Positions 34,150-50,588 of a stretch of 64,000 nucleotides of DNA are shown in pieces. Made by a program: the position numbers and the translations under genes. The DNA comes from an uncultured virus (IMG/VR IMGVR_UViG_3300042445_002545) (Duplodnaviria; Heunggongvirae; Uroviricota; Caudoviricetes). A model generated the notes under the pieces. The model did no database searches. It was not told where the DNA came from and worked only from the letters and a program-made list of their open reading frames with translations. Each line of letters opens with the position of its first letter. Positions within the stretch are counted from its first letter, which is position 1. The DNA lies in IMG/VR virus record IMGVR_UViG_3300042445_002545. One strand, 5' to 3'.

Positions 34150-34163
34150 TATAAATAATTTAG

Positions 34164-34236
34164 TGCACCTGGAGGGCCTCGAACCCTCTACCTTCCCGTT
34201 AAAAGCGGGAAGCCCGTCCACATGAGCTTCAGGCGC
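34164..34236 (-). tRNA. tRNA-Lys(TTT)
   Basis: Cloverleaf; anticodon arm TCCCG-CTTTTAA-CGGGA. Confidence 0.9.
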
Positions 34237-34271
34237 ATAACATAGCCATTTATTGTGTCTATGTGTCTATG

Positions 34272-34344
34272 TGCGCCCGACAGGGTTCGAACCTGTGACT
34301 CGTAAATTAAAAGTTTACTACTCTACCAACTGAGTTACGAGCGC
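34272..34344 (-). tRNA. tRNA-Lys(TTT)
   Basis: Cloverleaf; GTAAA-CTTTTAA-TTTAC. Confidence 0.92.
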
Positions 34345-34387
34345 ATATTTCTTCTTATGACACTCGTAACTTTTACAGCCGAGTGCC

Positions 34388-34432
34388 CTAACGTTTCTTC
34401 TTCTTTTTTGAAATGATTGTTAAGTTTTTCAT
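34388..34432 (-). CDS. Poly-Lys leader peptide MKNLTIISKKKKKR
   Basis: Five consecutive Lys codons; ORF ends 43 nt upstream of tRNA-Lys and is followed by alternative pairings. Confidence 0.75.
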   Translation of the reverse strand: MKNLTIISKKKKKR

Positions 34433-34466
34433 AATGTTTAATTTTTATTGTTTTATATTATTTTAG

Positions 34467-34617
34467 TGGGGCTGGGGGGAATCGAACCTAGGTTACCCTA
34501 TCTACTTCGCTTCAATGATTTGTTTGTCGACCAACGCCTCATATTCACTTTTTGACCTTAGCTGCTATAGCACCGCCTTATCGTGGCGGGTCGGTTCACC
34601 TCACCGCAAGCAACCCC
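34467..34617 (-). ncRNA. 151-nt tRNA-like RNA
   Basis: GGGGTTG/CAGCCCC-A terminal stem, TTCGATT loop, internal GC hairpins, no anticodon arm. Confidence 0.5.
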
Positions 34618-34622
34618 ATGTG

Positions 34623-34694
34623 AGCAGACGGCCAGAATCGAACTGGCATCCTCGATTTGGTAAACCGATGCACTAACCGTTGTGCTACGCCCGC
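34623..34694 (-). tRNA. tRNA-Gly(ACC), unusual A34
   Basis: TCGGT-TTACCAA-ATCGA; acceptor GCGGGCG/CGTCTGC, U73. Confidence 0.85.
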
Positions 34695-34741
34695 ATTCTA
34701 TTTTTTACCTCTATCATAAGAGCTTAAAATATAACAGCCCG

Positions 34742-34818
34742 TGGAGCGGGTGGTGGGGCTCAAACCCACAACCCCCAGCTTGGAAGGCTAGTGCTCTAAT
34801 CAATTGAGCTACACCCGC
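34742..34818 (-). tRNA. tRNA-Gly(TCC), CCA encoded
   Basis: CTAGC-CTTCCAA-GCTGG. Confidence 0.92.
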
Positions 34819-35047
34819 AATTTGTGCCTCTCTCTGCACCCGTCATACCCCTTTGTATTCTGTTAATCTCCTAAAGCCTCAGCCCTTATAAGGATTTTCC
34901 TAACGGTAAAGCGGTATCAAAAACCAGTATTCATTTAATAACGTCAGTAGGACTTAACTGGAACCTCTCATTTATATCCAATCATCAACGGGTAATTAAC
35001 CCATAAGGCGTAATCCATACATTGCTGCACGTCTATCCTACCTATTG

Positions 35048-35119
35048 AGCACTCTCCCAGAATCGAACTGAGTTATCTGATTTACAAGACCAGTGCATCA
35101 CCGAGTATGCTTAGAGTGC
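35048..35119 (-). tRNA. tRNA-Thr(TGT)
   Basis: CTGGT-CTTGTAA-ATCAG. Confidence 0.9.
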
Positions 35120-35187
35120 AAAATGATTTTTATTTCCCCCTTGAAAAGCCAAGTACAAGTCAAAAATCTAAAATTTACCCTAGCGAG

Positions 35188-35268
35188 TCGGAGCGGAGGG
35201 ATTCGAACCCCCATGCCGTTAGGACTTGATTTACAGTCAAGCGAGCCAGCCAATTGCTCAACACTCCG
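35188..35268 (-). tRNA. tRNA-Tyr(GTA)
   Basis: CTTGA-CTGTAAA-TCAAG, long variable region. Confidence 0.9.
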
Positions 35269-35335
35269 AAATACAGGATGGTACACTGTTCCAAATTAAA
35301 AGTTTGATAGTATATATTGCTGTAACCATCCTTTG

Positions 35336-35409
35336 TTATCCGAGAGGGCTTCGAACCCCCAGATTCTCCCTTCAAAGGGGAGTGACTTTGCCAGTTTGTC
35401 TATCGGACA
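35336..35409 (-). tRNA. tRNA-Gln(TTG)
   Basis: CTCCC-CTTTGAA-GGGAG. Confidence 0.9.
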
Positions 35410-35458
35410 ATAACTTCCCATAACTTATTTTTTTAATGGCTTATGGAAACCATATCAG

Positions 35459-35532
35459 TCGAGATTGGAGGAATTTAACCTACCATTCAACACCCCCCAT
35501 GAGTGTGGTCTTAAACAATAGACGAAATCTCG
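35459..35532 (-). tRNA. Degenerate tRNA-Pro-like gene
   Basis: Acceptor CGAGATT/AATCTCG-A; loop CATGGGG lacks U33; T-loop TTAAATT. Confidence 0.5.
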
Positions 35533-35535
35533 TTG

Positions 35536-35609
35536 TCGAATAGGCTGGATTCGAACCAGCGTGCTCGGCATTCCAAATGCCGCTAGATAAACCGCTCCTA
35601 TACTACTCG
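35536..35609 (-). tRNA. tRNA-Pro(TGG)
   Basis: CGGCA-TTTGGAA-TGCCG. Confidence 0.9.
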
Positions 35610-35711
35610 TTAAATTACATTCCTACTAGAGTTTATGTATAACTTAATTACCCAACATGTCAAAGAACATATAAACTTTATTTTTTGTCCCGTTTATAAA
35701 ATTATGGACAT

Positions 35712-35747
35712 AAAAAAACCCGAACTGCAATTAGCGATTCGGGTTTT
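35712..35747 (-). terminator. Attenuator terminator of tRNA operon 1
   Basis: AAAACCCGAATCGC-TAATT-GCAGTTCGGGTTTTTTT on minus strand. Confidence 0.85.
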
Positions 35748-35770
35748 AAATATCTTGTTAAGTTTAATGC

Positions 35771-35875
35771 TTAAATAAGCTTATCACTTTCAACTTGATA
35801 TGACACACCCGTCACACTAGGCTTCCCGCCTTGCGTATACTGTTTCGGTTGATATGTCGTACCTGTTGTTTTCAT
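35771..35875 (-). CDS. Leader peptide 1 MKTTGTTYQPKQYTQGGKPSVTGVSYQVESDKLI
   Basis: Lies between promoter and terminator; residues 2-19 are only K/T/G/Y/Q/P. Confidence 0.85.
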   Translation of the reverse strand: MKTTGTTYQPKQYTQGGKPSVTGVSYQVESDKLI

Positions 35876-35907
35876 TTTATTTTTTTTAATTATTTTTTAC
35901 TGTTTCT

Positions 35908-35950
35908 ATTAAATATATGCAAATATACTAAAAGTTTATAATATATGCAA
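35908..35950 (-). promoter_or_regulatory. tRNA operon 1 promoter (30-bp repeat, copy 1)
   Basis: TTG-N20-TATATTTG; ATTAAATATATGCAAATATACTAAAAGTTT is identical at 48300 and 50546. Confidence 0.85.
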
Positions 35951-35974
35951 CTTTTTTTAAATTATTTTTTTTAG

Positions 35975-36045
35975 AAGCGGATTCAGGACTCGAACCTGGC
36001 TATGGGGTTATGAGCCCCTTGTGCTACCAATTACACCAAACCGCA
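35975..36045 (-). tRNA. tRNA-Met(CAT), initiator-like
   Basis: GGGG-CTCATAA-CCCC anticodon arm, 1:72 mismatch. Confidence 0.8.
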
Positions 36046-36050
36046 ATATG

Positions 36051-36123
36051 TTCACCATAAGGGACTTCAACCCTCATCTCCACTCCCAAACGGAATGGTG
36101 CACTTACTTTGTGCTAATGGTAA
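36051..36123 (-). tRNA. Atypical tRNA-like gene, anticodon unresolved
   Basis: Acceptor, D and T arms present; anticodon arm CCATTCC-GTTTG-GGAGTGG abnormal. Confidence 0.5.
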
Positions 36124-36679
36124 ATAATGTTAGCCAGAATCATCTTTTTTTCCATAAACGAATTTTTGAATTTGCTGAACTGATTCTTATGCTAATTTTT
36201 TGAGACTGTCCAGATTTAATACTTACCTTATTCCCCTTAAATATGCGGTGATTAAATAGTTTATTCACCGCAAGGTTGTTGTGGCAGTGTAACCCTGTCT
36301 CGTAATATCTTTATCCCAAAATGATTTTTTGTGTTTTTCATCCCAGCGGATTAACCCGTTTTACGTCTTCGGCTTTGCTTTGGCGAGAGTCTACTGTTAT
36401 TCGACTGCATCCTACTTGCACCTGTTGGGGTGGTCTGACGTTTAACCTTTTTTTTATATGGAAGTCTTACCATTGTTATTAATTCCGTAGTTCCAATGAT
36501 ACAAGTACCATCTTTCCTTACCAATTAACATCTCATGTAGTTTGTCTGTTTGGTTGCAGAACTCATTTTTTTGGATAAATGTTTTATAATAAATTAAAGA
36601 ACGTTTTCTTATTTGTTTTACAAAGATAGTAACTATTTTTTGATTTGTCAACTACTTTATGAAAATATTTTAATATTTT

Positions 36680-37090
36680 TTAAAAATTCCACTCATTATT
36701 TGGTTTAACATCTTGATTATCAGTTAAATCAGTAATAAAAGTTTTTTTATTAATATCATCTCTAATTCTAGCTGCATCTTCATATCTTTCTTCAGTAACG
36801 GCTAACTCAAGTTGTTTTTGTAATGGTAATTCTTTTTTGACACCAGAAGTTTCAAGTGGTGAACCCACCATTTCAATTTTAACTATAGTACCATGTTCAT
36901 TTTCCCATTCAGTTCTTTCAAATGTGTAACCACCATCTTCATACCTAGATACCGATTTAGGTTCACCTAATTCACTTTCATCATCATTTTTTAATGATTC
37001 TCTCATATTCATTAAAGTTTTAATGAATTTTTGTAATTTCTCATTTTTCTTATTCCCATTATTAAAGGATTCGTCAAAATTATCAAACAT
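36680..37090 (-). CDS. UvrB/UvrC-motif protein
   Basis: LQKQLELAVTEERYEDAARIRDDI. Confidence 0.75.
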   Translation of the reverse strand: MFDNFDESFNNGNKKNEKLQKFIKTLMNMRESLKNDDESELGEPKSVSRYEDGGYTFERTEWENEHGTIVKIEMVGSPLETSGVKKELPLQKQLELAVTEERYEDAARIRDDINKKTFITDLTDNQDVKPNNEWNF

Positions 37091-37700
37091 AACTATTTTT
37101 TATTTATTGATTTATTATAATTTATATTGTCAAGTAAAATGCCAAATAATATTTAGTGACATTTAGTCATTAAATATCTATTTTTAAAAAATCTTAACTG
37201 ACAATTAGTCAGGTATTAATTTTTCTTAACTTTTTTAATTAGGTGTTTAATAGGGTTTACCTTAGAAAAGTGAAAATAAAGACCAAAGCAAAATGCTGAT
37301 AATAGGTAAAAAATAAATGTGGTAATTCCATAAGAACCTGTTAGTTGAAATATCATGTAAAATAGTATATCGAAACCCATCGGATTGAAGAACATTCCTA
37401 GCATTAGCATTATTATCGATATTTTTCTGTTTACTGGGGTCACTGTCCATAATTGTTTTAATTTTTTAATATTATAAAAACCGCTACATATAAATATATA
37501 GCGGTTTTGGTTTATTTAAGTTATTTTTTAATACCAACAAGTTATCATAGATACTCCTGGTACTAAACCAATAGCGTGAATTATTTCCTCTTTCCAAACT
37601 GGACCTTCAAAGTCACAATTTAATAATTTCACGATGTTTACAATCCAAGCTATTAAAACGTAAGCCCAAATTAAAAATGGTATTAAAGCTAATTTTCTCA

Positions 37701-38249
37701 TTATTCAAGTGTAAAAGTTAAGTTAGATTTTCTGATTCTAAGTGGTCTTTCAGAAATATGTAAGTATGTCCCACCACTTGGGTAATATTGATGATAGTTG
37801 TCTTGTGCATCAAACCAGAATAAATAATTTCCAGATTCACCATATGCACCACCATCATCTAATACTTCATCTGTTGTATATTGTGTACCACCAATGTATA
37901 CATAATTTGAATTACCTGGACTTTCATATCCATCACCATTTACAGTTTTAGGACTTAAACGTTTGCCACCTGAGGTAACTTTACCTTTAACTGTTGAGTA
38001 TTCTAATACGTCACCAGAATAAGATGAAATAACATACAAGTGTTTTACTTCACCAATTTGGTTGTCTCGCTGCAAACGTTCAATAATGTTTGTTTGTTCA
38101 ACTGTATGCCCTTCAGCATCAGTTTTAATGTGGGTTGTTGCTTTAATAGCACCAGAATCAGATTTTTGCTGTTTCCCATCTCCACAACCTGAAGACATAA
38201 GTACCAATGCAATCATTGATACACTCATTAATTTAAATAATTTTTTCAT
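37701..38249 (-). CDS. Putative lipoprotein
   Basis: Signal peptide ending SSG-C. Confidence 0.7.
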   Translation of the reverse strand: MKKLFKLMSVSMIALVLMSSGCGDGKQQKSDSGAIKATTHIKTDAEGHTVEQTNIIERLQRDNQIGEVKHLYVISSYSGDVLEYSTVKGKVTSGGKRLSPKTVNGDGYESPGNSNYVYIGGTQYTTDEVLDDGGAYGESGNYLFWFDAQDNYHQYYPSGGTYLHISERPLRIRKSNLTFTLE

Positions 38250-38260
38250 TTTTATTTTTT

Positions 38261-38677
38261 TTAATTAATTGATAAAATATATGGTTTAATCTCTCTAGGT
38301 AGAGGTTCTAGATTCGAAGCTGGTAAATCACCTTTATTACAAAAGGCATAGTTAAATTTACTCATTGCTGAGTTATATTCAGAACACAATGAATTGTGCA
38401 TTGAAATTAGACCCATCATTTCAGCTTGTGATTGTTGAAACTGAAAACTTTCCTGGTCTTTAATTGTTGATATTTGCGTTTTGTAAACATCAATGTTTGC
38501 TCTTTTCTCATCAATTGCTGCTGACACATCTTTGAAGTATTCATACTTCTTCAACATTGCTGATGGTGAGTACTCTTTTTGAATTACGTTTGATGCATCT
38601 CCACACATGTTTAATACAAATACCGTTGGTACGATTAAAAACATAATGACTGCAACTACTTTTAAATAAATGTTCAT
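38261..38677 (-). CDS. Membrane-anchored coiled-coil protein
   Basis: N-terminal TM segment followed by helical region. Confidence 0.65.
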   Translation of the reverse strand: MNIYLKVVAVIMFLIVPTVFVLNMCGDASNVIQKEYSPSAMLKKYEYFKDVSAAIDEKRANIDVYKTQISTIKDQESFQFQQSQAEMMGLISMHNSLCSEYNSAMSKFNYAFCNKGDLPASNLEPLPREIKPYILSIN

Positions 38678-38888
38678 ACTTTTTCTATTTTGTTTTTACA
38701 AATATATGTATAATTTTTTAATTAAACAAATAAAAAATGATTTATTTTTTAAGGTGAAAACAGGACTCGAACCTGTGGGTACCAACGATGTGATAAATCA
38801 CAACAATTTCACCCTAAAAAATTATCCTCTATTATCTGGACCATTCATGATTATATAGAAAAATATAAGAATAATAATGATTGCCATA

Positions 38889-39707
38889 TTATGAATTTAT
38901 TAAATCATTTTTAATTTCATTAACTAGATTTAAATGTTCTGTACCAAATTTTTCCCAAGCTAAGCCCATTTGTTTCAAATCGTAATGTTTAACTACCGTA
39001 CTATAATCTTTAATACCATCTTTATGACCAATCACATAGATACTATCAGCCAATTCAACAGCCAGGTTAATATCATGTGTTGAGAATATGATAGTATTCA
39101 ATTCATGACTCTCTTGAATTAATTTAAATGCTGATTTAACATTCTCAATGTTACCAACATCTAAACCACTGAACGGTTCATCAAATACCATAAAATGACC
39201 TGATGATAACAGTTGTTCAATAATCGCAGTTCTTTGTCTTTGACCACCAGATAATTCACATGGGTATTTATCCTTATGTTCAAATAATCCCCAATCAGTT
39301 AGATACTTATCAATCAATGTTGATTTCTCATCTTTAGTGATACCTTTCTTTCTCAATGCATAATTACAGATTTGTGTAATTGTTTTGTGTCTAAACAATG
39401 TATACTTTTGGTCAACAAACCCAACATCACCTTCACCTACTAATTTAGCATCATCTTTATTAACACTACCTATATCAGTAATCAACACTCTACCTGTTGT
39501 TGGTTTAATCAAACCAGTCAAAGCTTTGAATAATGTTGATTTACCTCTACCAGAACGACCAACTACTGCGATTGTCTGACCAACTACAGAACCTTCCGAA
39601 ATAACATCGTGTTCAGTAATATTAATATCTTTAATAATTGTTTTACCATCATATGCGACACTAATGTTGTCAAGACATAAAATTGTTTCTTTAATTTCGT
39701 ATTTCAT
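38889..39707 (-). CDS. ABC transporter ATP-binding protein (NitT/TauT type)
   Basis: GRSGRGKST, LSGGQRQR, VFDEPFSGLD, STHD. Confidence 0.93.
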   Translation of the reverse strand: MKYEIKETILCLDNISVAYDGKTIIKDINITEHDVISEGSVVGQTIAVVGRSGRGKSTLFKALTGLIKPTTGRVLITDIGSVNKDDAKLVGEGDVGFVDQKYTLFRHKTITQICNYALRKKGITKDEKSTLIDKYLTDWGLFEHKDKYPCELSGGQRQRTAIIEQLLSSGHFMVFDEPFSGLDVGNIENVKSAFKLIQESHELNTIIFSTHDINLAVELADSIYVIGHKDGIKDYSTVVKHYDLKQMGLAWEKFGTEHLNLVNEIKNDLINS

Positions 39708-39709
39708 AA

Positions 39710-40477
39710 TTAGATTTTTGAATATCTGAATAAACGTTTTCTGATGAATGTTAATGTGAAGTCCATAAATAGACCAACTAACAAGATGATTAACTGCAAT
39801 GCAATGATTCGACCATGATTCATGAACTTATCAGAATTTTTAATAAGAAATCCTAAACCACCAGCAGCCGCTAATATTGATTCAACCGTTACTAACATCA
39901 TCCACACAATTGCTAGATTTTGTCTAACTACTTCAATAACGTAGTCCACACGACCTTTAATTACAACTTCCCATAGAATCTCCCATCTATTGCAACCAAG
40001 TGCTCTAGCGTGGTCAAAATCCTCTTGTGGGATATCTTTTAGCATTGCTAATAATGATGTTGTTAAATAAGTTGTCATAAATGTTACCAACACCCAAACT
40101 TGAATTGCTCTACCATCAGTTAATAATATTGATATGTAAAATGAAATTCCAGTTAAAGGTAGGTATCTAAATTTACTTAAAATATTAGATATCGGTGATA
40201 TTACTGGTAGTGTTGATAGATACGCAAATACCAAGGATATTGATATTGCAATTAATACAGCTTTACCACATAGTGCTAATGAACTAAATATGTGAACAAT
40301 TAATCCCTCTTTATAAAGTTCAGATACACCACTAAATACTTGGCCTGGTGTTGGGAACATATGTGTAGTCCCAAGACTAGATAAAACCCAAAGTGTTATA
40401 ATGGTTAACAACCAACCTAATCCTATAAAAAGTTTAGTTTTTTGGGTTATATTCTCGAAAGGTTTAAAAATATTCAT
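39710..40477 (-). CDS. ABC transporter permease (NitT/TauT type)
   Basis: Multiple TMs, EAA-like loop DHARALGCNRW, GGLGFLI. Confidence 0.9.
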   Translation of the reverse strand: MNIFKPFENITQKTKLFIGLGWLLTIITLWVLSSLGTTHMFPTPGQVFSGVSELYKEGLIVHIFSSLALCGKAVLIAISISLVFAYLSTLPVISPISNILSKFRYLPLTGISFYISILLTDGRAIQVWVLVTFMTTYLTTSLLAMLKDIPQEDFDHARALGCNRWEILWEVVIKGRVDYVIEVVRQNLAIVWMMLVTVESILAAAGGLGFLIKNSDKFMNHGRIIALQLIILLVGLFMDFTLTFIRKRLFRYSKI

Positions 40478-40482
40478 ACTGA

Positions 40483-40986: not shown

Positions 40987-41056
40987 TTTGTTTTTTTTAA
41001 GGTTAAAAAATGGGGTAAACCTTAGATTTACCCCATTTTAATGTTTAATTTTAAGA

Positions 41057-42883
41057 TTACTGTAGTAATGTGATTTCTACTCGTCTATTCTTAGCTTTAC
41101 CTTGCGCCGTTGAGTTATCAGCAACTGGTCTAGAATCACCTTTACCATCTACCTCTTGAATACGTGATTTAGGAATCCCACGATTTTCAAGGTATTCAAC
41201 TACCGCATTTGCTCTACCTTTAGATAAGGTCATGTTGCTTGATGGGTTACCAACGTTATCAGTGTGACCTACAATTCTTAATTTAGAATCTTCCGCTTGC
41301 ATTAACAAGTTATAGATTTTCTCTAAATCTTTATTTGATACTTGTTGAATTGTAGTACTTCCAGTTGCAAAGTTAATATTCCAGTTACCACTAGCCATAA
41401 CGTGTGTTTTGTTTTTTGAGTAATCAGATTTTTCGACCATACCTACATCAATATCATCAATGTTTTTCAAGTAACGTAAGTTTACAGCTTCATCGTAAGG
41501 TACAATTCTATCAACTGATTGCATAAATCCGTAAGGATTCAATTCACTTAAGTACGTTGATACTTGGTTATATACTGACTCATAACGATTGATACCATCA
41601 CTGATACCGTAGTATTGCATAGCATCACCATAGTTAAGTACTCTTGACCCACCCATGTTGTATACAAGTCCGTTTTTATTACCTTTCGTACCTTTGAACA
41701 TTGTGTACCAGTATTCAGGTGTTTCCATATCAAATGTCTTTGCAACACATTCAGATGCTTTTACTCTCCATGAATCATATTGTTTCATTTGGTTAGATGC
41801 GGTCAATGCTGATTTAAGGATATTACTTACGATTTTAGGGTGTTTTGCCGCCCATTCTTTAACACCGATTAAAGTAGTTGCCATTTGATTTCTAAATTCA
41901 TGTGTTGATACAACATCAGTAAATCCAGTCAATGCATCAAATACAATCTTATCACCAGGTGTCCATGTAGCACAACCATCAATTTTCTTATTGATTGTCT
42001 TACCAGTCAATTTACCATCTTTAACCTCTTTCAATTCAACAGTGAAACCATTCTTTTGAGATTTGATTAATTCTTTTGCAGAGTTAATATAGTCATCATC
42101 TTCAGATGGGTAAAAGTTTACAGCTTCAGGGTCATATGTTGTTACATCAGGATTAACTTTCAATCCATTAGCAAAAACGTAGTTTAATGAAGTTACCCAG
42201 TCACCATCACCAATAACAGTTGAGATAAGAGCACCTTTCATTGATTGTGGGTCTGTTTTCCATTCTTTAGGTCCGATTAATTTATCTTCACCATCTGACA
42301 TACCGAAACAACCTTGAACCTCTACGTGATATTTACCTTCACCAAATTTATCATCTAATGCTGATTGCATAGTAGAGATGTAATATGGTGCACCATCACC
42401 CATTATAATAACACCATAAGCTGATTTATTAGATTTAGGATATTCAACACCACGGTCCATTTCCTCAATAAACTTCAACTGCATATTCTTTAATTCGGTA
42501 ACCCAGTCTTGTCTGATGATTTCCAAATTAACACCGTTTGCCTCCATAAGGGAACCTTCAGTTGTTTTTGGACCACCATTTGCTACGATGATACCAGATT
42601 GGCCATTCCAAGCGTATCCAGCAATTCGTACTACTGATTTATCAGACATTTCACTTGATAACTCATCAGATGGTAAATCAATCAAAGTACTTCTCATACT
42701 GTTATCGATATTATCATCACTCAATTCCATTCCGTCTAGTGTTTTAGATTCATCTACACGAAGTCCAGGTGCTAAGAAATACACACCAGTTAAAACGATG
42801 GCTAAACCAGCCGCTAAAATAAAAATTTCAAATCCTGTAGTCAAACCTTGATTTGGATTTTTTCTGTTAAAAATTCTTCCCAT
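41057..42883 (-). CDS. Substrate-binding-like protein fused to a C-terminal OmpA peptidoglycan-binding domain
   Basis: N-terminal TM; FATGS, GHTDNVG, LSKGRANAV, NRRVEI. Confidence 0.85.
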   Translation of the reverse strand: MGRIFNRKNPNQGLTTGFEIFILAAGLAIVLTGVYFLAPGLRVDESKTLDGMELSDDNIDNSMRSTLIDLPSDELSSEMSDKSVVRIAGYAWNGQSGIIVANGGPKTTEGSLMEANGVNLEIIRQDWVTELKNMQLKFIEEMDRGVEYPKSNKSAYGVIIMGDGAPYYISTMQSALDDKFGEGKYHVEVQGCFGMSDGEDKLIGPKEWKTDPQSMKGALISTVIGDGDWVTSLNYVFANGLKVNPDVTTYDPEAVNFYPSEDDDYINSAKELIKSQKNGFTVELKEVKDGKLTGKTINKKIDGCATWTPGDKIVFDALTGFTDVVSTHEFRNQMATTLIGVKEWAAKHPKIVSNILKSALTASNQMKQYDSWRVKASECVAKTFDMETPEYWYTMFKGTKGNKNGLVYNMGGSRVLNYGDAMQYYGISDGINRYESVYNQVSTYLSELNPYGFMQSVDRIVPYDEAVNLRYLKNIDDIDVGMVEKSDYSKNKTHVMASGNWNINFATGSTTIQQVSNKDLEKIYNLLMQAEDSKLRIVGHTDNVGNPSSNMTLSKGRANAVVEYLENRGIPKSRIQEVDGKGDSRPVADNSTAQGKAKNRRVEITLLQ

Positions 42884-42990
42884 TTTTTTTCTTTTTTTTT
42901 TGTTATTAATAATTGTTTTTAAATTTTACCTTACAAAGATAAGGATAACTTTTCAATTATCCAAATCTTTTTTGATTTTTTTTTGATTAA

Positions 42991-44094: not shown

Positions 44095-44096
44095 TT

Positions 44097-44792: not shown

Positions 44793-45241
44793 TTTTTTTC
44801 TTTTTTTCGTTAATAATATTTTTAATTACCTGACAAAGATATGTATAATATTTCAATTAAACAAATATTTTTTAATTTTTTTTGATTTTTGTTGAGTGAA
44901 GAGGAATTGAACCTCAAGCATCTAGTATAAGAGACTGCCGTCCCCGCCTCGTCCAGAGCACCCAATGGTTTAAATTAAACTTTTTCCCAATAAGTTTTAG
45001 TTATCACCTTCTCTTTCTTTTCAACCCTATTAAGTTCTGTGATATCACTATCCTCTCTACCATAATCAGAATCAAAAACATAAGTATTAGTTTCCCAATA
45101 ACCATCTAATTCTCTAGGTAATTCTGGGAAATATTTTTCAGATATTTCAGTTATTGACCTGGTAAAGAAGTTAGAACCCCTTCTATGTTCTTCATAACTA
45201 TCTTCTTGAAAGTCTTCAATTAAGATATCAAAATCAATACC

Positions 45242-45322
45242 TAATTCTTTTGCGATTTGTCTTGTTATTTTATTAATCATAATTCTTTTGCGATTTGTCT
45301 TGTTATTTTATTAATCATAATT
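45242..45322. repeat. 38-bp direct tandem duplication covering a gene start
   Basis: TAATTCTTTTGCGATTTGTCTTGTTATTTTATTAATCA x2. Confidence 0.9.
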
Positions 45323-46851
45323 TTAATAGGTTGATTGGAATTTACTTTCTTCTAAAAAAGAACCTACTGTTTCCTTACTTTGCATTATTAAATCTTTAGC
45401 TATCTTTTCAGATATTACTTTATAGATAACATTTAAAATAGCATCCTGATGTGAACCATCTTCAAAATACTCTTTAAACTTTGTTTTAATACCAAATAAA
45501 TCAATAGTATCTTTCACATGAAACTCTTTACCATTTAATACAAACTTACAATGCATAATTATAGTATTTTCGAAGTGAGTTCCATAAGAAGTATTTATAA
45601 AAAACCCTTCAGCTGTTATAATGTTATCATTTAATTTAAAATGATGCATTATATTTTCAATTGCTTTTTCTTGAAACTCATTTAATAATTCTACACTTTT
45701 ATCTGTTGGTGCTTTATGCTCATGTACAGTTTTTTCGTAAGGTACTAAACGTTCTGTATAAGTGTGTGTATTTTTACTCATATTTTAATTTTTATCTACT
45801 TCTTTAGCTCTTTTAGTACCTAATGATATCGGTAATAAGGCCCAACCAAATACCCATGCTACTAAAAACCCTTGTAGATTAATTCCAGCTTTTTGATACA
45901 TGTCCATACCTATGACATATAAAGTACTGAAAACCCAGTATAAAAATAATAAATTATCCATAATTTTTAATTGTTAATAAGAACAAACATTCTTTTTTTA
46001 TTTGATGGTTTTTTAAATAAATCAGCAAATCTATCATTGAAACTATCTAATTCAGAATAATCTATTACTGCAACTGAATGATTAACGTAATCATCTTCAT
46101 CTACTACATCTAAATCTTTAATTGGTGTTAAATAGCAATCATAATCGGCTATTTCAGTAAAAATAAAACAATCACCTTTATGCTGATATTTCCATTCACC
46201 AATTTGACTATTCAAACCCTTACCTATTGGTATTGCAGCAGTATCGAAATCAATATCATGTTCACTTAAATCTGGTAATACTAATAACATATCACATTCA
46301 AGCATTGGTTTATGGGAATAAGACCCACCTTTAAATTCAACTAACTCAATATCAAATTTAGAAAGTCTAACCCTGACGGCCATTAGGTCATCAGGGTTTA
46401 CCTTATTAGATTTGGCTAAATATATCTTAGTTTTCATTTTCAGATACGAACCATTCGTTTTTAATTTCATTGGCAACTTCCAATTCAATAGCTTTCAACT
46501 TAATTTCCATCTTAGTGTCGTGCAATTCATTCATCCATCTTGATGCATCAAAATCTTTGCTACCTGGACGTAAACTGTATGTGTTGTCTGGTGCCAAATC
46601 AGTTAAACTAGTTAACTTATTGTTTAATTTTGAAAGCTCACGTTTCAATGTATTGATAAATGTATCAACTTCCAAGATTGTGTCTTCAGCTAATTGTTTA
46701 GCTCTTGTTTCTTTAATTGTATTATCAGAAGCTGATAACATGTTTACAAATTTACTCATAGTTTATTATTTTAATTATTAATTAATCAGGATGCAAATAT
46801 AATATCTTTTTTTTAATTACGCAACTTTTTTTAAACTTTTTTTGATTTTAG

Positions 46852-46924
46852 TTGAGATAAGGGGTTTCGAACCCCGTGTTTCCACCCGTCTAGGTGGCGT
46901 TCTAACCAATTAAACTATATCCCA
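46852..46924 (-). tRNA. Atypical tRNA with a 6-nt anticodon loop and G3.U70
   Basis: Good acceptor, D and T arms; CCACC-TAGACG-GGTGG. Confidence 0.55.
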
Positions 46925-46929
46925 ATTTG

Positions 46930-47058
46930 TCGATGTTAAGGGACTCGAACCCATGAGCGGATGCCTCCTATTGTGTTACCTATTATTTAACGTGGACTCG
47001 AACCACACAGCCACCAAGACCAAATCCGAATCGAACGGAATACTCGCCAACAACACCG
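46930..47058 (-). ncRNA. tRNA-like RNA with three T-loop hairpins
   Basis: CGGTGTT/AACATCG-A closing stem; TTCGATT, TTCGAGT, TTCGAGT loops. Confidence 0.55.
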
Positions 47059-47061
47059 TTG

Positions 47062-47204
47062 TGGAGGATACAGGACTCGAACCTGTGGCCATGGGGTTAT
47101 CCCCACATCTATTTATCAGGCTAATTCATTGTACTTCTGAATCTCAAACACCCTATCTTCAATGGTAACTATAGTTACTACTCTACCAACTGAGCTAATC
47201 CCCC
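47062..47204 (-). ncRNA. 143-nt Ala-acceptor tRNA-like RNA with the anticodon arm replaced by a long insert
   Basis: GGGGGAT/ATCCTCC-A (G3.U70), canonical D arm and T arm. Confidence 0.7.
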
Positions 47205-47248
47205 AAATAAGATTTTTGTAATTACCTGGAATCTTGTAACCAGTTATG

Positions 47249-47322
47249 TGGAGCTAGGGGTGTATGATACCCCATCTCCGCATTGCAAGTGCGGTGTGTT
47301 AGCCAGTTGTCACCATAGCCCC
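47249..47322 (-). tRNA. tRNA-Ala(TGC)
   Basis: CCGCA-CTTGCAA-TGCGG, G3.U70; atypical T-loop ATCATAC. Confidence 0.85.
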
Positions 47323-47456
47323 AAATTAAGCTAAATAAATAAGTCTTCGTCTCTCCTAGCTGGCCCACTTGAAGATTTAATCTTCGTGCCCGACTCGAAC
47401 GGGAATGCTAGCGACTCAATCCAGCTTGCCCATAAATGGGTACTTATTTAACTTAG

Positions 47457-47528
47457 CGGTCCCACGGGTAATCGAAACCCGAACTCTGCCGTGACAGGGC
47501 AGCATTATTGCCGTTTAACTACAGGACC
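47457..47528 (-). tRNA. tRNA-Asp(GTC)
   Basis: CTGCC-CTGTCAC-GGCAG, G73. Confidence 0.92.
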
Positions 47529-47594
47529 AAAGTTACTTTTTCTTTCTCAGCTATTCAGCGTCTAGGAAATATAAAAGTATAAAACCCTACATCG

Positions 47595-47664
47595 TATTGG
47601 GTATGGGACTCGAACCCATATCAACCGCTCACTGCGGCCATCCTGACCATTAGACGAACCCAAA
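47595..47664 (-). tRNA. Degenerate tRNA (Glu/Asp-type D arm, anticodon unresolved)
   Basis: T arm ATGGG-TTCGAGT-CCCAT; anticodon arm GCCGC-AGTGA-GCGGT. Confidence 0.5.
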
Positions 47665-47735
47665 AAACCAACTTTATCTGACTGCAATCATCAATCATTG
47701 GCTCTCTTGCAAGTATTGCAGTACTTGCTTGATAG

Positions 47736-47807
47736 TCACCCATACGGTAGTCGAAACCGTGTTTTTAGGTTGAAAACCTAACGTCCTAACCACTAGACGA
47801 ATGGGCG
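47736..47807 (-). tRNA. tRNA-Glu(TTC)
   Basis: TTAGG-TTTTCAA-CCTAA. Confidence 0.9.
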
Positions 47808-47943
47808 TGTTAAATGTACTAATTCCTTATAGGTGACTAGATTTATCCTTTCGGACTAGATGGGTAGCCTAGCGACTTATCGACACAATTATCGATGTCC
47901 TTTTTCTAATACTTCATATCACGTTTACCTTCAATACATTTTG

Positions 47944-48017
47944 TGGTACCAGTGGGACTCGAACCCACGACACCTAGAGCTTCAATCTAGTGCTACTACC
48001 AACTGAGCTACAGTACC
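47944..48017 (-). tRNA. tRNA-Phe(GAA)
   Basis: CTAGA-TTGAAGC-TCTAG. Confidence 0.9.
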
Positions 48018-48029
48018 ATTATTGTTTTA

Positions 48030-48061
48030 CAAAGATATGAATAATTTTTTAATTATCCAAA
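48030..48061 (-). promoter_or_regulatory. Internal Bacteroidota-type promoter just upstream of tRNA-Phe
   Basis: TTTG-N20-TATCTTTG. Confidence 0.7.
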
Positions 48062-48131
48062 TTTTTTATATTTTTTTTTAATTTAATATTTCAAAGAACG
48101 TGAAACCGATGTTTCTGTTATTGTTATAAAC

Positions 48132-48164
48132 AAAAAAAGCTCTGATTTTTAGGTCAGAGCTTTT
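48132..48164 (-). terminator. Attenuator terminator of tRNA operon 2
   Basis: AAAAGCTCTGA-CCTAAAAA-TCAGAGCTTTTTTT on minus strand. Confidence 0.85.
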
Positions 48165-48187
48165 ATCAATTATGTTAAACGATTACG

Positions 48188-48277
48188 TTAACTTATGACA
48201 ATAGTTGACCTTCCCAAGCTTTCATCCGCCTCGGCTGCAAAAAATGCAAAATCAAATATGTTAGTTAATGTTCTCAT
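48188..48277 (-). CDS. Leader peptide 2 MRTLTNIFDFAFFAAEADESLGRSTIVIS
   Basis: Residues 8-19 are only F/D/A/E. Confidence 0.85.
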   Translation of the reverse strand: MRTLTNIFDFAFFAAEADESLGRSTIVIS

Positions 48278-48299
48278 TGTGTTTTTTATTCGTGTTCTA

Positions 48300-48342
48300 A
48301 TTAAATATATGCAAATATACTAAAAGTTTTTTTATTTGTCAA
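48300..48342 (-). promoter_or_regulatory. tRNA operon 2 promoter (30-bp repeat, copy 2)
   Basis: TTG-N20-TATATTTG, identical 30-mer. Confidence 0.85.
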
Positions 48343-48361
48343 GTTTTTTTAAAACTTTTTT

Positions 48362-49012
48362 TTATTTTCTTATTTTACCTAGGAAATCCTTAGTATTATT
48401 AATACCTATAGCGTTTACTATTTGTCTTAAAAAAGTTTGTCTACTTTCAGTATTACTTTCTTTATACTGATTTATAAGATTAACAACTTCTTGCTCTTTA
48501 TCTCTAGATAATTTTGTTTTATAATCAGCAACATCTAATATACTCATGTAATAGTAACCATCAATTAATTCAGCACTATCTAAAATTTCATTTGTTGACC
48601 TAACTCTTACATCAGCATATGAACCTCCAGCTTTTGATGGGTCCCAAATAGTAAAAGCTTCAATTGAACCGTCTGATGTTGGTCTATATATACCACCATT
48701 TTTTAATTCTTCCTGTAGTCCAGCATTTATCCAAAGTTGCTCATCTGGTATCACTATATCTAAATCACCAATAGTACCACTTAATCCAAATGCGTCTCTT
48801 AATTTGGGGTACAAATACAATCTAGCTGACCCACCAATGAAGTACGATTTATTATTGGGTACTATACCAAATTTTTTAAAAATTAATTCATCAGCTCTAC
48901 TTAATAATGTATTTAAACCACTAGTGTCAACTTCATTTACTAAATCCTCACTTACGTTTTTCCAAAATTCTTTTAAAAAAAATTCGTTTATATAAATCTC
49001 ACTTAATCTCAT
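48362..49012 (-). CDS. Nucleotidyltransferase-fold protein
   Basis: FIGGSA...GDLDI motif; K..LSRDK. Confidence 0.6.
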   Translation of the reverse strand: MRLSEIYINEFFLKEFWKNVSEDLVNEVDTSGLNTLLSRADELIFKKFGIVPNNKSYFIGGSARLYLYPKLRDAFGLSGTIGDLDIVIPDEQLWINAGLQEELKNGGIYRPTSDGSIEAFTIWDPSKAGGSYADVRVRSTNEILDSAELIDGYYYMSILDVADYKTKLSRDKEQEVVNLINQYKESNTESRQTFLRQIVNAIGINNTKDFLGKIRK

Positions 49013-49514
49013 ATTCTTTTAATCTATCAATTACTTCTTTATTATATTGACATTCAATTGTCAATTTTTTAAATGATAGAAACATACTTAATGGTCTTGG
49101 TCCATTTAGAAATAAGAAATTATAAGCTGACCATTCACTAGTCACATAATAACTTTTTCTATTTTCCATTATATCCAATAAACACATTGGGTGTTTATTG
49201 ACATATTTCCAATCATATTTGTAACAAAGTTTAGATAAATTTTTCATAAATAATCTAAACTCAATAATTCTAGTGATTAATGTTACTAGAACAAACCCTA
49301 AAAGTGTAATTACTATCATATTATAAATATTTAAACTTTATCAAATATAATAACTATTTTTGTACTATCCAAATTTATTTGATTATTTTTTTGATTATTT
49401 AAACCATAAGCATCACATGATGTTTTTGTTGTTGCACAAGATGCTAGTATTATCGCTAGTAATATTAATTTTTTCATATTAATAAATATGTTGATTATTT
49501 TTAAAATAATTAAG

Positions 49515-49594
49515 TACCTCTGGCGGGACTCGAACCCGCAAGAACTCGGTTTCTAAGACCGTTAGCTGTGCCAATTTACATAAGTCACAGAGGC
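49515..49594 (-). tRNA. tRNA-Leu(TAG), short variable loop and enlarged D region
   Basis: CGGT-CTTAGAA-ACCG; A73. Confidence 0.8.
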
Positions 49595-49602
49595 ATATTT
49601 TG

Positions 49603-49685
49603 TACTCCAAGAGGGGCTCGAACCCTCACGCCCTACGGGCACAGCATTTTAAGTGCTGCGTGTCTACCAATTCCACCATCGGAGC
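49603..49685 (-). tRNA. tRNA-Leu(TAA)
   Basis: CAGCA-CTTAAAA-TGCTG, long variable arm. Confidence 0.92.
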
Positions 49686-49731
49686 ATTTTGCACTTCCTA
49701 CCCATCCATATCGTATAGTGCTAACCGCTAG

Positions 49732-49805
49732 TACACCCTGTAGGATTCGAACCTACGACCCTTCGGATGTAAACCGAATGCTCTAACCAACTGAGCTAAA
49801 GGTGC
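49732..49805 (-). tRNA. tRNA-Val(TAC)
   Basis: TTCGG-TTTACAT-CCGAA. Confidence 0.92.
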
Positions 49806-49816
49806 ATGTGGTAGGT

Positions 49817-50146
49817 TTAACCCACCTTTATAAATGTTTCATTCTTTATGGATTTACTAATCCATCTGTTAAGCTCGGAGCCCCTCATTTCACTGTAGAA
49901 AGTAGTTGTTCCAAGGTCTTCAGACAATGTTGTAAACACATCTGACTCCTTAACTTCTGCACCAACTTCTAAAGTTGATACATGATATCTAACCTTTACA
50001 TCAACTGTTGAAATTGGAAACTCGTATATATCACCAAACACTTCAATGTTGTAATACAAGTTACCAGCAATATAGTGACTAAACTTAGCCATTGCTTTTG
50101 ACTTAAATAAGTCTTTTTTTATTTCAGTTTCATTAAACATAACCAT
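49817..50146 (-). CDS. Hypothetical protein embedded in tRNA operon 3
   Basis: 109-aa ORF between tRNA-Cys and tRNA-Val. Confidence 0.7.
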   Translation of the reverse strand: MVMFNETEIKKDLFKSKAMAKFSHYIAGNLYYNIEVFGDIYEFPISTVDVKVRYHVSTLEVGAEVKESDVFTTLSEDLGTTTFYSEMRGSELNRWISKSIKNETFIKVG

Positions 50147-50305
50147 TTTTTTTTCTTCGTTTAAAGAGTAACTTTATAGTATTTAAACTAATCTTATTAT
50201 TTTTATCAGCTCTAACATGTCTAAAATTTTCATATGACCCTTTATATGTTCCCGTTAATACTACTTTCCCCTCATTATCTTTTCTTTCCATAATCTATCT
50301 TTTTG

Positions 50306-50378
50306 AGCTGGGAGAGGGATTTGAACCCCCGTATGTGGATTTGCAATCCACTGCCTAAAGCCACTCGACCATCCCAGC
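50306..50378 (-). tRNA. tRNA-Cys(GCA)
   Basis: GTGGA-TTGCAAA-TCCAC, U73. Confidence 0.92.
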
Positions 50379-50385
50379 ATTAAAC

Positions 50386-50417
50386 AAAAAACCCGAAGTG
50401 ACTAATCGCTTCGGGTT
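50386..50417 (-). terminator. Attenuator terminator of tRNA operon 3
   Basis: AACCCGAAGCGA-TTAG-TCACTTCGGGTTTTTT on minus strand. Confidence 0.85.
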
Positions 50418-50446
50418 GTGAATATTGTTTATTTATTATTAAACTA

Positions 50447-50521
50447 TCAACACAGCCCAAAACTGACTACCACTAAAAGTAGACATAAGTTAAGCACCAA
50501 AATGTTGTTAATTGTTTTCAT
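50447..50521 (-). CDS. Leader peptide 3 MKTINNILVLNLCLLLVVVSFGLC
   Basis: 11 of residues 8-19 are L/V/C. Confidence 0.85.
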   Translation of the reverse strand: MKTINNILVLNLCLLLVVVSFGLC

Positions 50522-50545
50522 CGTATTAATTTTTTAATCGTTTTA

Positions 50546-50588
50546 ATTAAATATATGCAAATATACTAAAAGTTTTTTAATTTGTCAA
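50546..50588 (-). promoter_or_regulatory. tRNA operon 3 promoter (30-bp repeat, copy 3)
   Basis: TTG-N20-TATATTTG, identical 30-mer. Confidence 0.85.

Follow-up and report, generated by a model that had tools for sequence, protein, structure and literature searches.

Predicted leader-peptide attenuators in front of the tRNA operons of a lake-water jumbo phage

The tRNA operons of a lake-water jumbo phage are very probably governed by ribosome-mediated (leader-peptide) attenuation, with one attenuator in front of each cluster, and a given tRNA set is probably made only when the ribosomes are short of that set. Leader-peptide attenuation is textbook knowledge for amino-acid biosynthesis, whereas the usual account of tRNA genes is promoter control. 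The case was built by computation on a stretch of 64,000 nucleotides from an uncultured virus (IMG/VR record IMGVR_UViG_3300042445_002545, here called the window) and on its relatives, and it comprises the architecture, the match of leader composition to amino acids and anticodons, the alternative pairing and the compensatory changes that conserve it, and leaders that co-vary with tRNA content. The leaders are presumed to be translated, and stalling within them would be expected to raise read-through into the tRNA genes; the trigger would presumably be the loss of host tRNAs in infection, caused by host shut-off or tRNA-cleaving defences, and not amino-acid starvation. The logic of ribosome-mediated attenuation was put forward in a preliminary description of this DNA and is supported here; all computational tests proposed there were favourable.

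The three clusters share one minus-strand layout of promoter, leader ORF, terminator and tRNA genes (Table 1), as had been described, and this is borne out by the block search, the ORFs, the folds and the tRNA calls. The 27-nt promoter core is present in three exact copies in the 64-kb window, all on the minus strand (35908-35934, 48300-48326 and 50546-50572), with 0 matches in 100 shuffles of the sequence; three extra common bases extend it to the identical 30-bp block claimed earlier, confirmed by exact-match search and by the sequences of all three units. Leader ORFs start 21-32 nt past this block, with the start codon between promoter and tRNA genes, and their lengths of 34, 29 and 24 aa agree with the 24-34 aa given before. 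The phage promoters are of the Bacteroidota type. The U-tailed terminators between leader and tRNAs were recovered at all three units, as a GC stem with a U tract at 35747-35715, 48164-48135 and 50417-50390; their local folds lie between -13.9 and -17.1 kcal/mol, and 6-7 U come after them. Across all 64 kb of the window the minus strand yields only 8 terminator-like hairpins, and three of these are the attenuator terminators. The common layout needs an addition at cluster 2, which also has a second promoter (48060-48030) past terminator 2, arranged in the same way in the sequences of the relatives; because this promoter lies downstream of the terminator, cluster 2 can be made without passing the attenuator and the control is not exclusive. 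A tRNA-Met and a tRNA-Lys (36123-35974) are situated upstream of promoter 1, outside every attenuator. With several clustered tRNA genes in a viral genome the clusters constitute a phage tRNA array, and the window also encodes phage lysozyme and other phage-type genes as well as RNA-repair-type proteins (RlaP, RNA ligase, HAD_SAK_1 and a 2'-5' RNA ligase-like protein).

Table 1. Features of the predicted attenuator units and tRNA clusters in the window
Feature	Position	Strand	Description
Promoter of attenuator 1	35908..35950	-	TTG (-33) ... TAnnTTTG (-7); contains the identical 30-bp block
Leader ORF 1	35771..35875	-	34 codons; codons 2-19 (35872-35819) solely K T G Y Q P
Antiterminator strand 1	35804..35821	-	Codons 19-24; pairs with 5' arm of terminator 1
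Terminator 1	35712..35747	-	GC stem, 7 U; local fold -17.1 kcal/mol
tRNA cluster 1	34163..35609	-	Pro, Pro (second at lower ARAGORN threshold), Gln, Tyr, Thr, Gly(tcc), Gly(acc), Lys, Lys
Promoter of attenuator 2	48300..48342	-	TTGACA-17-TATATT, also TTG...TAnnTTTG; contains the identical 30-bp block
Leader ORF 2	48188..48277	-	29 codons; codons 8-19 (48256-48221) solely F D A E
Antiterminator strand 2	48197..48214	-	About codons 22-27; pairs with 5' arm and loop of terminator 2
Terminator 2	48128..48164	-	GC stem and U tract
Second, unattenuated Bacteroidota-type promoter	48030..48060	-	Directly upstream of tRNA-Phe, after terminator 2
tRNA cluster 2	46851..48017	-	Phe, Glu, His, Asp, Ala and two odd tRNA candidates
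Possible intron-bearing tRNA, cluster 2	47061-47204	-	
tRNA with abnormal anticodon loop, cluster 2	46851-46924	-	
Promoter of attenuator 3	50546..50588	-	Contains the identical 30-bp block
Leader ORF 3	50447..50521	-	24 codons; codons 8-19 (50500-50465) L, V, C and one N
Antiterminator strand 3	50450..50470	-	Codons 18-24; pairs with 5' arm of terminator 3
Terminator 3	50385..50417	-	GC stem and U tract; U tract starts 14 nt before tRNA-Cys
tRNA cluster 3	49514..50378	-	Cys, 109-aa ORF (49817-50146), Val, Leu(taa), Leu(tag)

Codons 2-19 of the leaders are rich in the amino acids of their own clusters, with 18/18 own-set residues in leader 1, 12/18 in leader 2, 11/18 in leader 3 and 16 or 17/18 in a fourth leader type seen in relatives (binomial P of 6e-10 to 2e-4, the reference being the window's own protein composition). 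All amino acids of each cluster are present in its own leader with the sole exception of His, the tRNA for which sits in cluster 2 although His codons are absent from leader 2. With the four leader types taken together, a matching leader codon exists for 24 of the 25 distinct own-cluster anticodons, that tRNA-His being again the exception, and the two isoacceptors each of Gly, Leu, Arg and Ser are among those sampled; in leader 1, own-cluster anticodons read 17 of the 18 tract codons under strict wobble. It had been claimed that the tracts match their own clusters with no cross-matching, and the match stands but the second part is too strong: in codons 2-20, residues from the sets of other clusters number 7 in leader 2 and 8 in leader 3. 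They lie mostly in a common N-terminal M-K/R-T-I/L-N-N-I stretch, the first six or seven codons of both leaders being outside their own sets. The tract end at codon 19 and the serine at codon 20 were found in all three leaders, as reported before. Leader 3 is hydrophobic. Among relatives, 24 of 32 replacements at in-set tract positions remain in the set, and tract composition is kept in peptides that are free to diverge towards their C-terminal ends.

RNA folding, one of the checks proposed earlier, gave a terminator and a mutually exclusive antiterminator, the upstream strand of which begins directly after the tract; the anticipated pairing of post-tract codons with the 5' arm of the terminator is seen in the folds and in compensatory changes of diverged relatives. 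When folds end before the 3' arm of the terminator, the 5' arm is paired upstream in all four types, and this pairing disappears after the A site moves beyond codon 18-20. In equilibrium folds leaders 2 and 3 lose the terminator with a ribosome in the tract, and in types 1 and 4 the terminator remains formed (P about 0.96) at any ribosome position, for which reason the switch of these two types would work only under a kinetic, co-transcriptional model. Upstream pairing of the 5' arm also persists in the shortened folds when no ribosome is placed (P 0.45-0.85 for the window's leaders, 0.19-0.85 for all variants), and in full-length folds the tract pairs with strand 2 and the terminator is kept; since the antiterminator forms without a ribosome in the former, termination in the absence of translation would depend on the earlier-made tract:strand-2 hairpin of the latter. 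Antiterminator duplexes of 18 variants have a mean of -15.0 kcal/mol for cognate against -9.2 for non-cognate pairs, and for 35 variants, both huge phages described below included, the values are -12.1 and -8.6 +/- 0.38, with 0 of 20000 permutations reaching the observed one; as relatives within one family are not independent of each other, such counts of variants overstate the number of evolutionary events. The terminator stems are wholly different between relatives, and the leader strand changes along with the stem.

The proposed co-variation check had a positive outcome too, as leader composition tracks tRNA content in the relatives (viral contigs of IMG/VR, among them a complete one that has terminal repeats) and in two distant, differently grouped huge phages. 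The fourth leader type of the related contigs uses N I H R M S W and its unit is absent from the window; in the phage family the four types together cover all 20 amino acids without overlap. In the complete relative (G002, 287,855 bp) no tRNA for F, D, A, E, L, V or C is present, and of the leader types it yielded types 1 and 4 only. When leaders and tRNA sets of the window family are paired in all 24 possible ways, no other permutation does as well as the true one. The tRNAs of the huge phages LR745206.1 and LR756502.1 are grouped differently and the leaders follow the grouping; the 7 leaders of LR745206.1 allow 5040 permutations, among which the true pairing again stands alone at the top, and LR756502.1 has orthologous units with diverged peptides. 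Some huge-phage leaders match loosely, the first leader of LR745206.1 having 8/19 own-set residues. In the same phage a leader with Asn and Arg codons, followed by a terminator, is located upstream of an asparagine-tRNA ligase (NF003037, 414.1 bits, cut-off 414) and an ArgRS-like gene (PF00750, 26.4 bits, cut-off 23.3).

The following course of events may be proposed. Transcription would be started by the strong Bacteroidota-type promoter and a ribosome would start on the short leader, where codons 2-19 (or 8-19) would poll the amino acids that the tRNAs of this operon carry, and in all but one case every anticodon. If an aminoacyl-tRNA is scarce, the ribosome would wait in the tract, leaving codons about 19-27 free to pair with the 5' arm of the terminator, and the polymerase would read through to make the tRNA set. 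If decoding is fast, the ribosome would cover the antiterminator strand, or the tract would re-pair with that strand behind the ribosome, and the terminator would form and stop transcription. The outcome would be a closed supply-on-demand loop for each tRNA group, with four such loops covering all 20 amino acids in the phage family.

It could be argued that promoter, short ORF and terminator are a small transcription unit by themselves, either a micropeptide gene or an insulator stopping upstream transcription, that the tRNAs have their own promoters, and that the composition match is without regulatory meaning. The canonical promoter between terminator 2 and tRNA-Phe speaks for it, hydrophobic leader 3 could pass as a membrane micropeptide, and the type 1 and 4 terminators are always formed at equilibrium. 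Such a unit is nevertheless highly improbable, as it leaves unexplained the tracking of the downstream tRNA set across groupings (best of 5040 and of 24 permutations), the sampling of nearly all anticodons, the kept complementarity of the post-tract strand to a changing terminator arm, and the free C-terminal divergence of peptides whose tract composition is kept; at cluster 3 there is moreover no space for another promoter, because the U tract of terminator 3 almost reaches tRNA-Cys. It is also very unlikely that the leaders sense decoding speed with an output other than termination, where stalling would alter how the precursor RNA is processed or how stable it is, RNase access to the tRNA precursor's 5' end being one example, or would act through Rho. 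A canonical intrinsic terminator, U tract included, is present in each unit, and complementarity kept specifically to the terminator 5' arm is an antiterminator signature for which a processing model has no need; this outweighs the lack of equilibrium switching in types 1 and 4, the 59-codon ORF between terminator and tRNAs in type 4 and the conserved spacer of ~110 nt at that place in cluster 1, all of which speak for such a model.

A different question is what the attenuators would respond to. The mechanism may be the same and the signal ordinary amino-acid starvation or matching of the host growth rate, and not tRNA loss by infection or host defence. Because a leader peptide reads aminoacyl-tRNA, it cannot distinguish uncharged from missing tRNA, and the AsnRS/ArgRS-like unit of LR745206.1 is a classical starvation-type arrangement. 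Amino-acid starvation is, however, not cured by extra tRNA, and therefore the loop would bring an advantage only where the supply of tRNA itself can fall short; the presumed RNA-repair genes of the window would fit tRNA damage as a selective force. A starvation or growth-rate signal is regarded as rather unlikely.

Leader-peptide attenuation in front of tRNA genes has several known counterparts. The thr leader (Thr and Ile) and the ilvGMEDA leader (Ile, Val and Leu) are multivalent leader-peptide attenuators of enterobacterial amino-acid operons, and the phage units, whose leader translation is predicted, share with them the promoter, the short leader with clustered regulatory codons, the intrinsic terminator, the competing antiterminator and the use of several amino acids per leader. 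In contrast to these leaders, which regulate biosynthetic enzymes, the phage units would regulate tRNAs, sense up to seven amino acids and sample nearly all anticodons of the operon, and they have Bacteroidota-type promoters and no Shine-Dalgarno sequence. None of the Rfam covariance models for leaders of amino-acid operons (His, Thr, Leu and Trp) matched, the only leader-family signal being a sub-threshold S15 match elsewhere, and the phage elements are analogues, not sequence relatives, of these families. In the pheST leader of E. coli an aminoacyl-tRNA synthetase operon is attenuated through Phe codons, that is, a translation-supply gene is placed under a leader reading the cognate codons, exactly the arrangement of the AsnRS and ArgRS-like unit; in the window the product is the tRNA itself, and sensed molecule and product would belong to one pool, with direct feedback on tRNA supply. 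T-box riboswitches (RF00230) also let the charging state or supply of a specific tRNA decide between terminator and antiterminator, but they bind uncharged tRNA directly and need no translation, whereas the phage units contain an ORF, and a search of 30000-55000 at E up to 1 gave no RF00230 match. Phage tRNA arrays are known from T4, vibriophages, mycobacteriophages and huge phages; they resemble the present clusters as clustered tRNA genes in a large phage genome and differ in their described control, which is by promoter and time. For huge phages, tRNA genes are reported to number up to 67 per genome and tRNA repair genes are mentioned (PMC7162821), and in that article (Al-Shayeb et al. 2020) "attenuat" and "leader" both have 0 occurrences. 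The literature search found no description of attenuation of tRNA genes.

With decoding speed at given codons as the sensed quantity and the tRNAs reading those codons as the product, a direct feedback loop would be closed, and this four times in the phage family. It would be a concrete and testable answer to the long-standing question of when and why phage tRNAs are expressed, it would connect phage tRNAs to current work on tRNA-targeting defence systems, and it may provide a natural and compact model for building codon-specific sensors. For a case built by computation alone, the comparative signal is unusually clean, regrouped tRNAs having matching leaders and replaced terminators having matching antiterminators. 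It can tentatively be proposed that jumbo and huge Bacteroidota phages may run their translation supply as autonomous sensor-actuator loops, in which each tRNA group and at least one aminoacyl-tRNA synthetase pair would be gated by a leader polling exactly its anticodons; the phage would detect which host tRNAs are lost through host shut-off or tRNA-cleaving defence nucleases and replace just those, a demand-driven counter-defence that would evolve by co-editing of leader and array.

The three tRNA clusters, all on the minus strand of the window, share one layout as had been claimed, since a promoter, a leader ORF, a terminator and tRNA genes were found at all three (units, leaders and clusters are numbered 1 to 3 by position; coordinates are collected in the table). 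In this AT-rich window (G+C 30%) an exact 27-nt sequence occurs three times, on the minus strand only and with 0 matches in 100 shuffles, and it becomes the claimed identical block of 30 bp once three further common bases are counted. Inside the block there is a TTG...TAnnTTTG arrangement, which we take to be the Bacteroidota promoter consensus, and two of the three copies read TTGACA-17-TATATT too. The gap from the block to the ATG of the leader ORF is 21-32 nt, and each leader ORF is followed by a GC stem with a U run and then by tRNA genes; a simple scan of our own over the full minus strand returned eight terminator-like hairpins for the window, three of them belonging to the units. ARAGORN predicted 19 tRNA genes and 18 tRNA matches lay above the Rfam gathering score, while a lower ARAGORN threshold added a second tRNA-Pro and a tRNA-Leu(tag), together with a doubtful intron-bearing tRNA detected at that threshold only. 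The genes of tRNA-Met and tRNA-Lys are placed upstream of promoter 1. Between terminator 2 and tRNA-Phe a second canonical promoter is located, as it also is in relatives, so cluster 2 also has an input that is not subject to attenuation.

Some smaller features were recorded in the same region. The identical block ends with 12 nt that are downstream of the -7 box; in diverged relatives (stretches L056, L060 and L063) this AT-rich motif stands ~30 nt downstream of the promoter, still just upstream of the leader start, and distant huge phages carry a similar one. It looks like a 5'-UTR element rather than promoter sequence. A short conserved motif downstream of terminators 1 and 2, which also occurs in 5' regions following other promoters in the phage family (L021, L060), could be a processing or binding site. 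Behind another promoter, ~400 nt before tRNA-Lys/tRNA-Met, there is a 13-codon ORF without a terminator of the attenuator kind; the 422-nt stretch before these tRNAs folds no better than shuffles (z = -0.57), and a similar small ORF is found ahead of a tRNA-Met in stretch L030. One tRNA-like gene of the window (Rfam 43 bits) belongs to a kind to which ARAGORN assigned a 2- or 4-base anticodon, meaning an abnormal anticodon loop, and such genes occur at a conserved place in relatives.

Coordinates of the described features (window positions unless a stretch or accession is named)
Feature	Coordinates	Strand	Remark
27-nt promoter core, unit 1	35908-35934	-	
27-nt promoter core, unit 2	48300-48326	-	
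27-nt promoter core, unit 3	50546-50572	-	
Last 12 nt of identical block	35908-35919, 48300-48311, 50546-50557	-	AT-rich
Leader ORF 1	35875..35771	-	ATG, 34 codons
Leader ORF 2	48277..48188	-	ATG, 29 codons
Leader ORF 3	50521..50447	-	ATG, 24 codons
Leader 1, second half	35819-35848	-	
tRNA genes (ARAGORN)	between 34163 and 50378	-	
Second tRNA-Pro	35458-35532		lower threshold
tRNA-Leu(tag)	49514-49585		lower threshold
Intron-bearing tRNA	47061-47204		doubtful
tRNA-Met and tRNA-Lys	36123-35974		
Second promoter, cluster 2	48060-48030		
Motif after terminators 1 and 2	~35650-35690, 48090-48110	-	
13-codon ORF	36524-36565	-	
Promoter of 13-codon ORF	36651-36621		
Stretch before tRNA-Lys/Met	36124-36545		
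tRNA-like gene, abnormal loop	46851-46924	-	
Same, relatives	L060:3906-3977, L071:1565-1638, L072:937-1024		
tRNA with anticodon CTA	L065:938-1009		contig G003
RlaP-like nucleotidyltransferase	50959-52173	-	
RNA ligase	57650-58708	-	
HAD_SAK_1	25766-26380	-	
2'-5' RNA ligase/Acb1-like	26404-26973	-	
RNB-domain RNase	23034-24572	-	
Sigma-70-family factors	19262-20149, 28915-29502	-	
ORF with UVR motif	36680-37090		Pfam
101-aa ORF	44975-45280		
38-bp tandem duplication	45242-45317		family D19
ABC transporter ATPase and permease	38889-40477	-	
OmpA-domain protein	41057-42883	-	608 aa
PAS histidine-kinase-like protein	54049-55476	-	
Leader and terminator, synthetase operon	L073:76-195		LR745206.1 390300-393300
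Synthetase genes	L073:223-2599		LR745206.1 390300-393300

The codons of each leader reflect the tRNAs of its own cluster. Codons 2-19 of leader 1 encode only K, T, G, Y, Q and P, and the cluster comprises tRNAs for Pro, Gln, Tyr, Thr, Gly and Lys; codons 8-19 of leader 2 encode only F, D, A and E before tRNAs for Phe, Glu, His, Asp and Ala; codons 8-19 of leader 3 encode L, V and C with one N before tRNAs for Cys, Val and two for Leu. Within the fixed stretch of codons 2-19 the own-set residues number 18/18, 12/18 and 11/18, respectively (binomial P = 6e-10, 2e-4 and 1e-5 against the protein composition of the window itself). Counting four leader types, 24 of the 25 distinct own-cluster anticodons have a leader codon, including both isoacceptors for Gly and Leu and, in type 4, for Arg and Ser. 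The postulated match of leader to cluster held in composition and down to single anticodons, that of tRNA-His of cluster 2 being the only one not sampled. The accompanying statement that there is no cross-matching was too strong, because leaders 2 and 3 open with six or seven out-of-set codons; their common beginning, M-K/R-T-I/L-N-N-I, is found again in almost every relative. Within its second half, leader 1 has the residues Q, Y, T, a further Q and G, G, K in parallel with the gene order Gln, Tyr, Thr, Gly, Gly, Lys, a possibly fortuitous parallel seen in leader 1 only.

The promoter core was present in 18 stretches of IMG/VR viral contigs, and a 21-nt part of it in 24. These relatives possess the same three leader types and a fourth, absent from the window, in which 16 or 17 of the 18 codons 2-19 are drawn from N, I, H, R, M, S and W and behind which tRNAs for Asn, His, Trp, Ser, Ile, Met and Arg are located. 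Combined, the four tracts (the leader codons sampling the amino acids of a cluster) cover 6 + 4 + 3 + 7 = 20 amino acids with no overlap. A complete related genome of 287,855 bp with terminal repeats (G002) carries leader types 1 and 4 only and is without tRNAs for F, D, A, E, L, V and C. All four types are found in a more distant 86-kb fragment (G005) with 34 tRNA matches, a promoter different from that of the window and diverged leader peptides. At in-set tract positions 24 of 32 replacements among relatives remain in the set, although, the sequences being related, these cannot be counted as independent; towards their C termini the peptides drift freely. A 126-kb related fragment (G003) holds a tRNA with anticodon CTA, which reads UAG and may indicate stop-codon suppression or recoding in that phage. 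The small protein downstream of the type 4 attenuator was considered as a lead and discarded: it has a homologue in the huge phage LR745206.1, but there are no tRNAs there.

Megablast of the window against cultured and deposited phages returned only a 54-nt tRNA match, and the nearest cultured relative, Tenacibaculum phage PTm1, was identified by one protein at 38% identity; PTm1 has no tRNA genes and was therefore ruled out as a cultured model. Pfam contained no family for 10 of the 11 small ORFs within and between the clusters, and a UVR motif was found in one ORF. Elsewhere, a perfect 38-bp tandem duplication adjoins a 101-aa ORF, and the ABC transporter, OmpA-domain and PAS histidine-kinase-like genes are unusual phage cargo.

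More distant comparison was offered by the RlaP-like nucleotidyltransferase, the best deposited matches of which (~50% identity) are in two uncultured phages, LR745206.1 (634,780 bp, 61 tRNA matches) and LR756502.1 (642,428 bp, 50 tRNA matches). Judging by their length, both presumably belong among the genomes over 634 kb for which passages of Al-Shayeb et al. 2020 (PMC7162821) give predicted Bacteroidetes hosts. The tRNA genes of LR745206.1 are grouped quite unlike those of the window, a leader and a terminator of its own being present for each group. Ahead of the tRNAs for His, Phe, Trp and Lys the leader is rich in H, K, F and W, and ahead of those for Arg and Ser in S and R. The Glu/Tyr group follows a leader with Y and E, the Ile/Gly/Met/Ala group one with I, G and A, the Pro/Asp group one with P, Q and D, and the three tRNA-Gln one with seven Q. 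The remaining leader, with 19/19 of codons 2-20 in the set, stands before twenty tRNAs (for Asn, Arg, Leu, Val, Ile, Thr and Met). Co-variation of leader and tRNA content in homologous loci, named beforehand as a point on which the interpretation could fail, was found: among the 5040 permutations possible for the seven leaders of LR745206.1 the true pairing alone scores best, and in the family of the window it is the best of 24. Orthologous units of LR756502.1 have diverged peptides with an unchanged composition logic.

It was also claimed that the tracts end at codon 19 and that the following codons pair with the 5' arm of the terminator. Full-length equilibrium folds without a ribosome keep the terminator (P about 0.95). 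With a modelled ribosome, which masks everything up to 10-13 nt past the A-site codon, and the A site in the tract, leaders 2 and 3 lose the terminator at equilibrium but leaders 1 and 4 keep it, so equilibrium folding alone gives no switch for types 1 and 4. Since attenuation is decided kinetically, transcripts cut immediately ahead of the 3' arm of the terminator were folded too, and here in all four types the 5' arm pairs with the codons after the tract. This pairing collapses when the A site is beyond codon 18-20, which accounts for every tract ending at codon 19; the proposed geometry was borne out in the cut transcripts for all types and at equilibrium for two of them. In cut transcripts the antiterminator forms also without a ribosome (P 0.45-0.85 for the leaders of the window, 0.19-0.85 for all variants), hence termination in the untranslated state must rest on the tract first pairing with the antiterminator strand behind it, a pairing seen in the full folds.

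The terminator stems of relatives are entirely different, and the strand after the tract changes alongside. Because the paired segments are replaced wholesale, an alignment-based count of pairs was dropped in favour of comparing cognate and non-cognate duplex energies. For 18 variants the antiterminator duplexes averaged -15.0 kcal/mol when cognate vs -9.2 when non-cognate; with 35 variants picked up automatically, those of both huge phages and one artefact among them, the energies were -12.1 vs -8.6 +/- 0.38, and 0 of 20000 permutations reached the observed value. The artefact, an overlapping out-of-frame ORF in L079, was retained and works against the attenuator reading. The best cognate duplex has its upstream strand at about codons 18-31 in the majority of the 35 variants. 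Such compensatory change of stem and leader strand provides the strongest support for the predicted switch.

LR745206.1 also has a leader of 16 codons, three of them for Asn and two for Arg, with a terminator after it, upstream of two 392-codon genes. The first encodes an asparagine-tRNA ligase (NF003037, 414.1 bits vs a cut-off of 414; TIGR00457, 394.5 vs 342.6) and the second a divergent class I synthetase with arginine-tRNA ligase as its best match (PF00750, 26.4 bits vs 23.3; TIGR00456 under its cut-off). Leader-peptide control of synthetase genes is known from E. coli pheST, and the phage arrangement is of this kind. Gene order and leader codons mark this as an aminoacyl-tRNA synthetase operon of a phage, with predicted leader-peptide control, and it shows leader peptides in use by these phages as putative amino-acid-specific sensors.

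By architecture the units are leader-peptide attenuators, four of the six defining features having been found computationally. At the three units Rfam (E up to 1) returned tRNAs only and no leader, T-box or other cis-regulatory family, so they are neither sequence relatives of the Rfam leader families nor T-boxes. All 20 sequencing runs containing the stretch are listed as DNA, mostly from lake water; translation of the leaders and regulated read-through are inferred from sequence. Slow decoding of any codon of a set would let the polymerase enter the operon supplying the matching tRNAs and restored decoding would close it, each unit being a closed loop. The leader peptide would sense aminoacyl-tRNA, a missing and an uncharged tRNA being indistinguishable to it. 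Since the loop would be useful only if the tRNA itself runs short, this points to an infection-specific loss of host tRNA as the trigger, through host shut-off or tRNA-cleaving defences. The RNA-repair-type genes of the window (RlaP, RNA ligase, HAD_SAK_1 and 2'-5' RNA ligase-like) fit such a trigger but do not show it. An RNA-turnover type gene, for an RNB-domain RNase, is encoded as well. The RlaP gene lies directly upstream of attenuator 3. Two phage sigma-70-family factors are encoded, one of them ECF-like, and either could serve the conserved attenuator promoter.

The preliminary description knew of no attenuators controlling phage tRNA genes, and no attenuation of tRNA genes was described in the literature searched, mostly at abstract level; the huge-phage paper PMC7162821 contains neither 'attenuat' nor 'leader'. 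It can be said that these phages appear to apply a known mechanism to a new class of target genes, and that the comparative support for this is strong.
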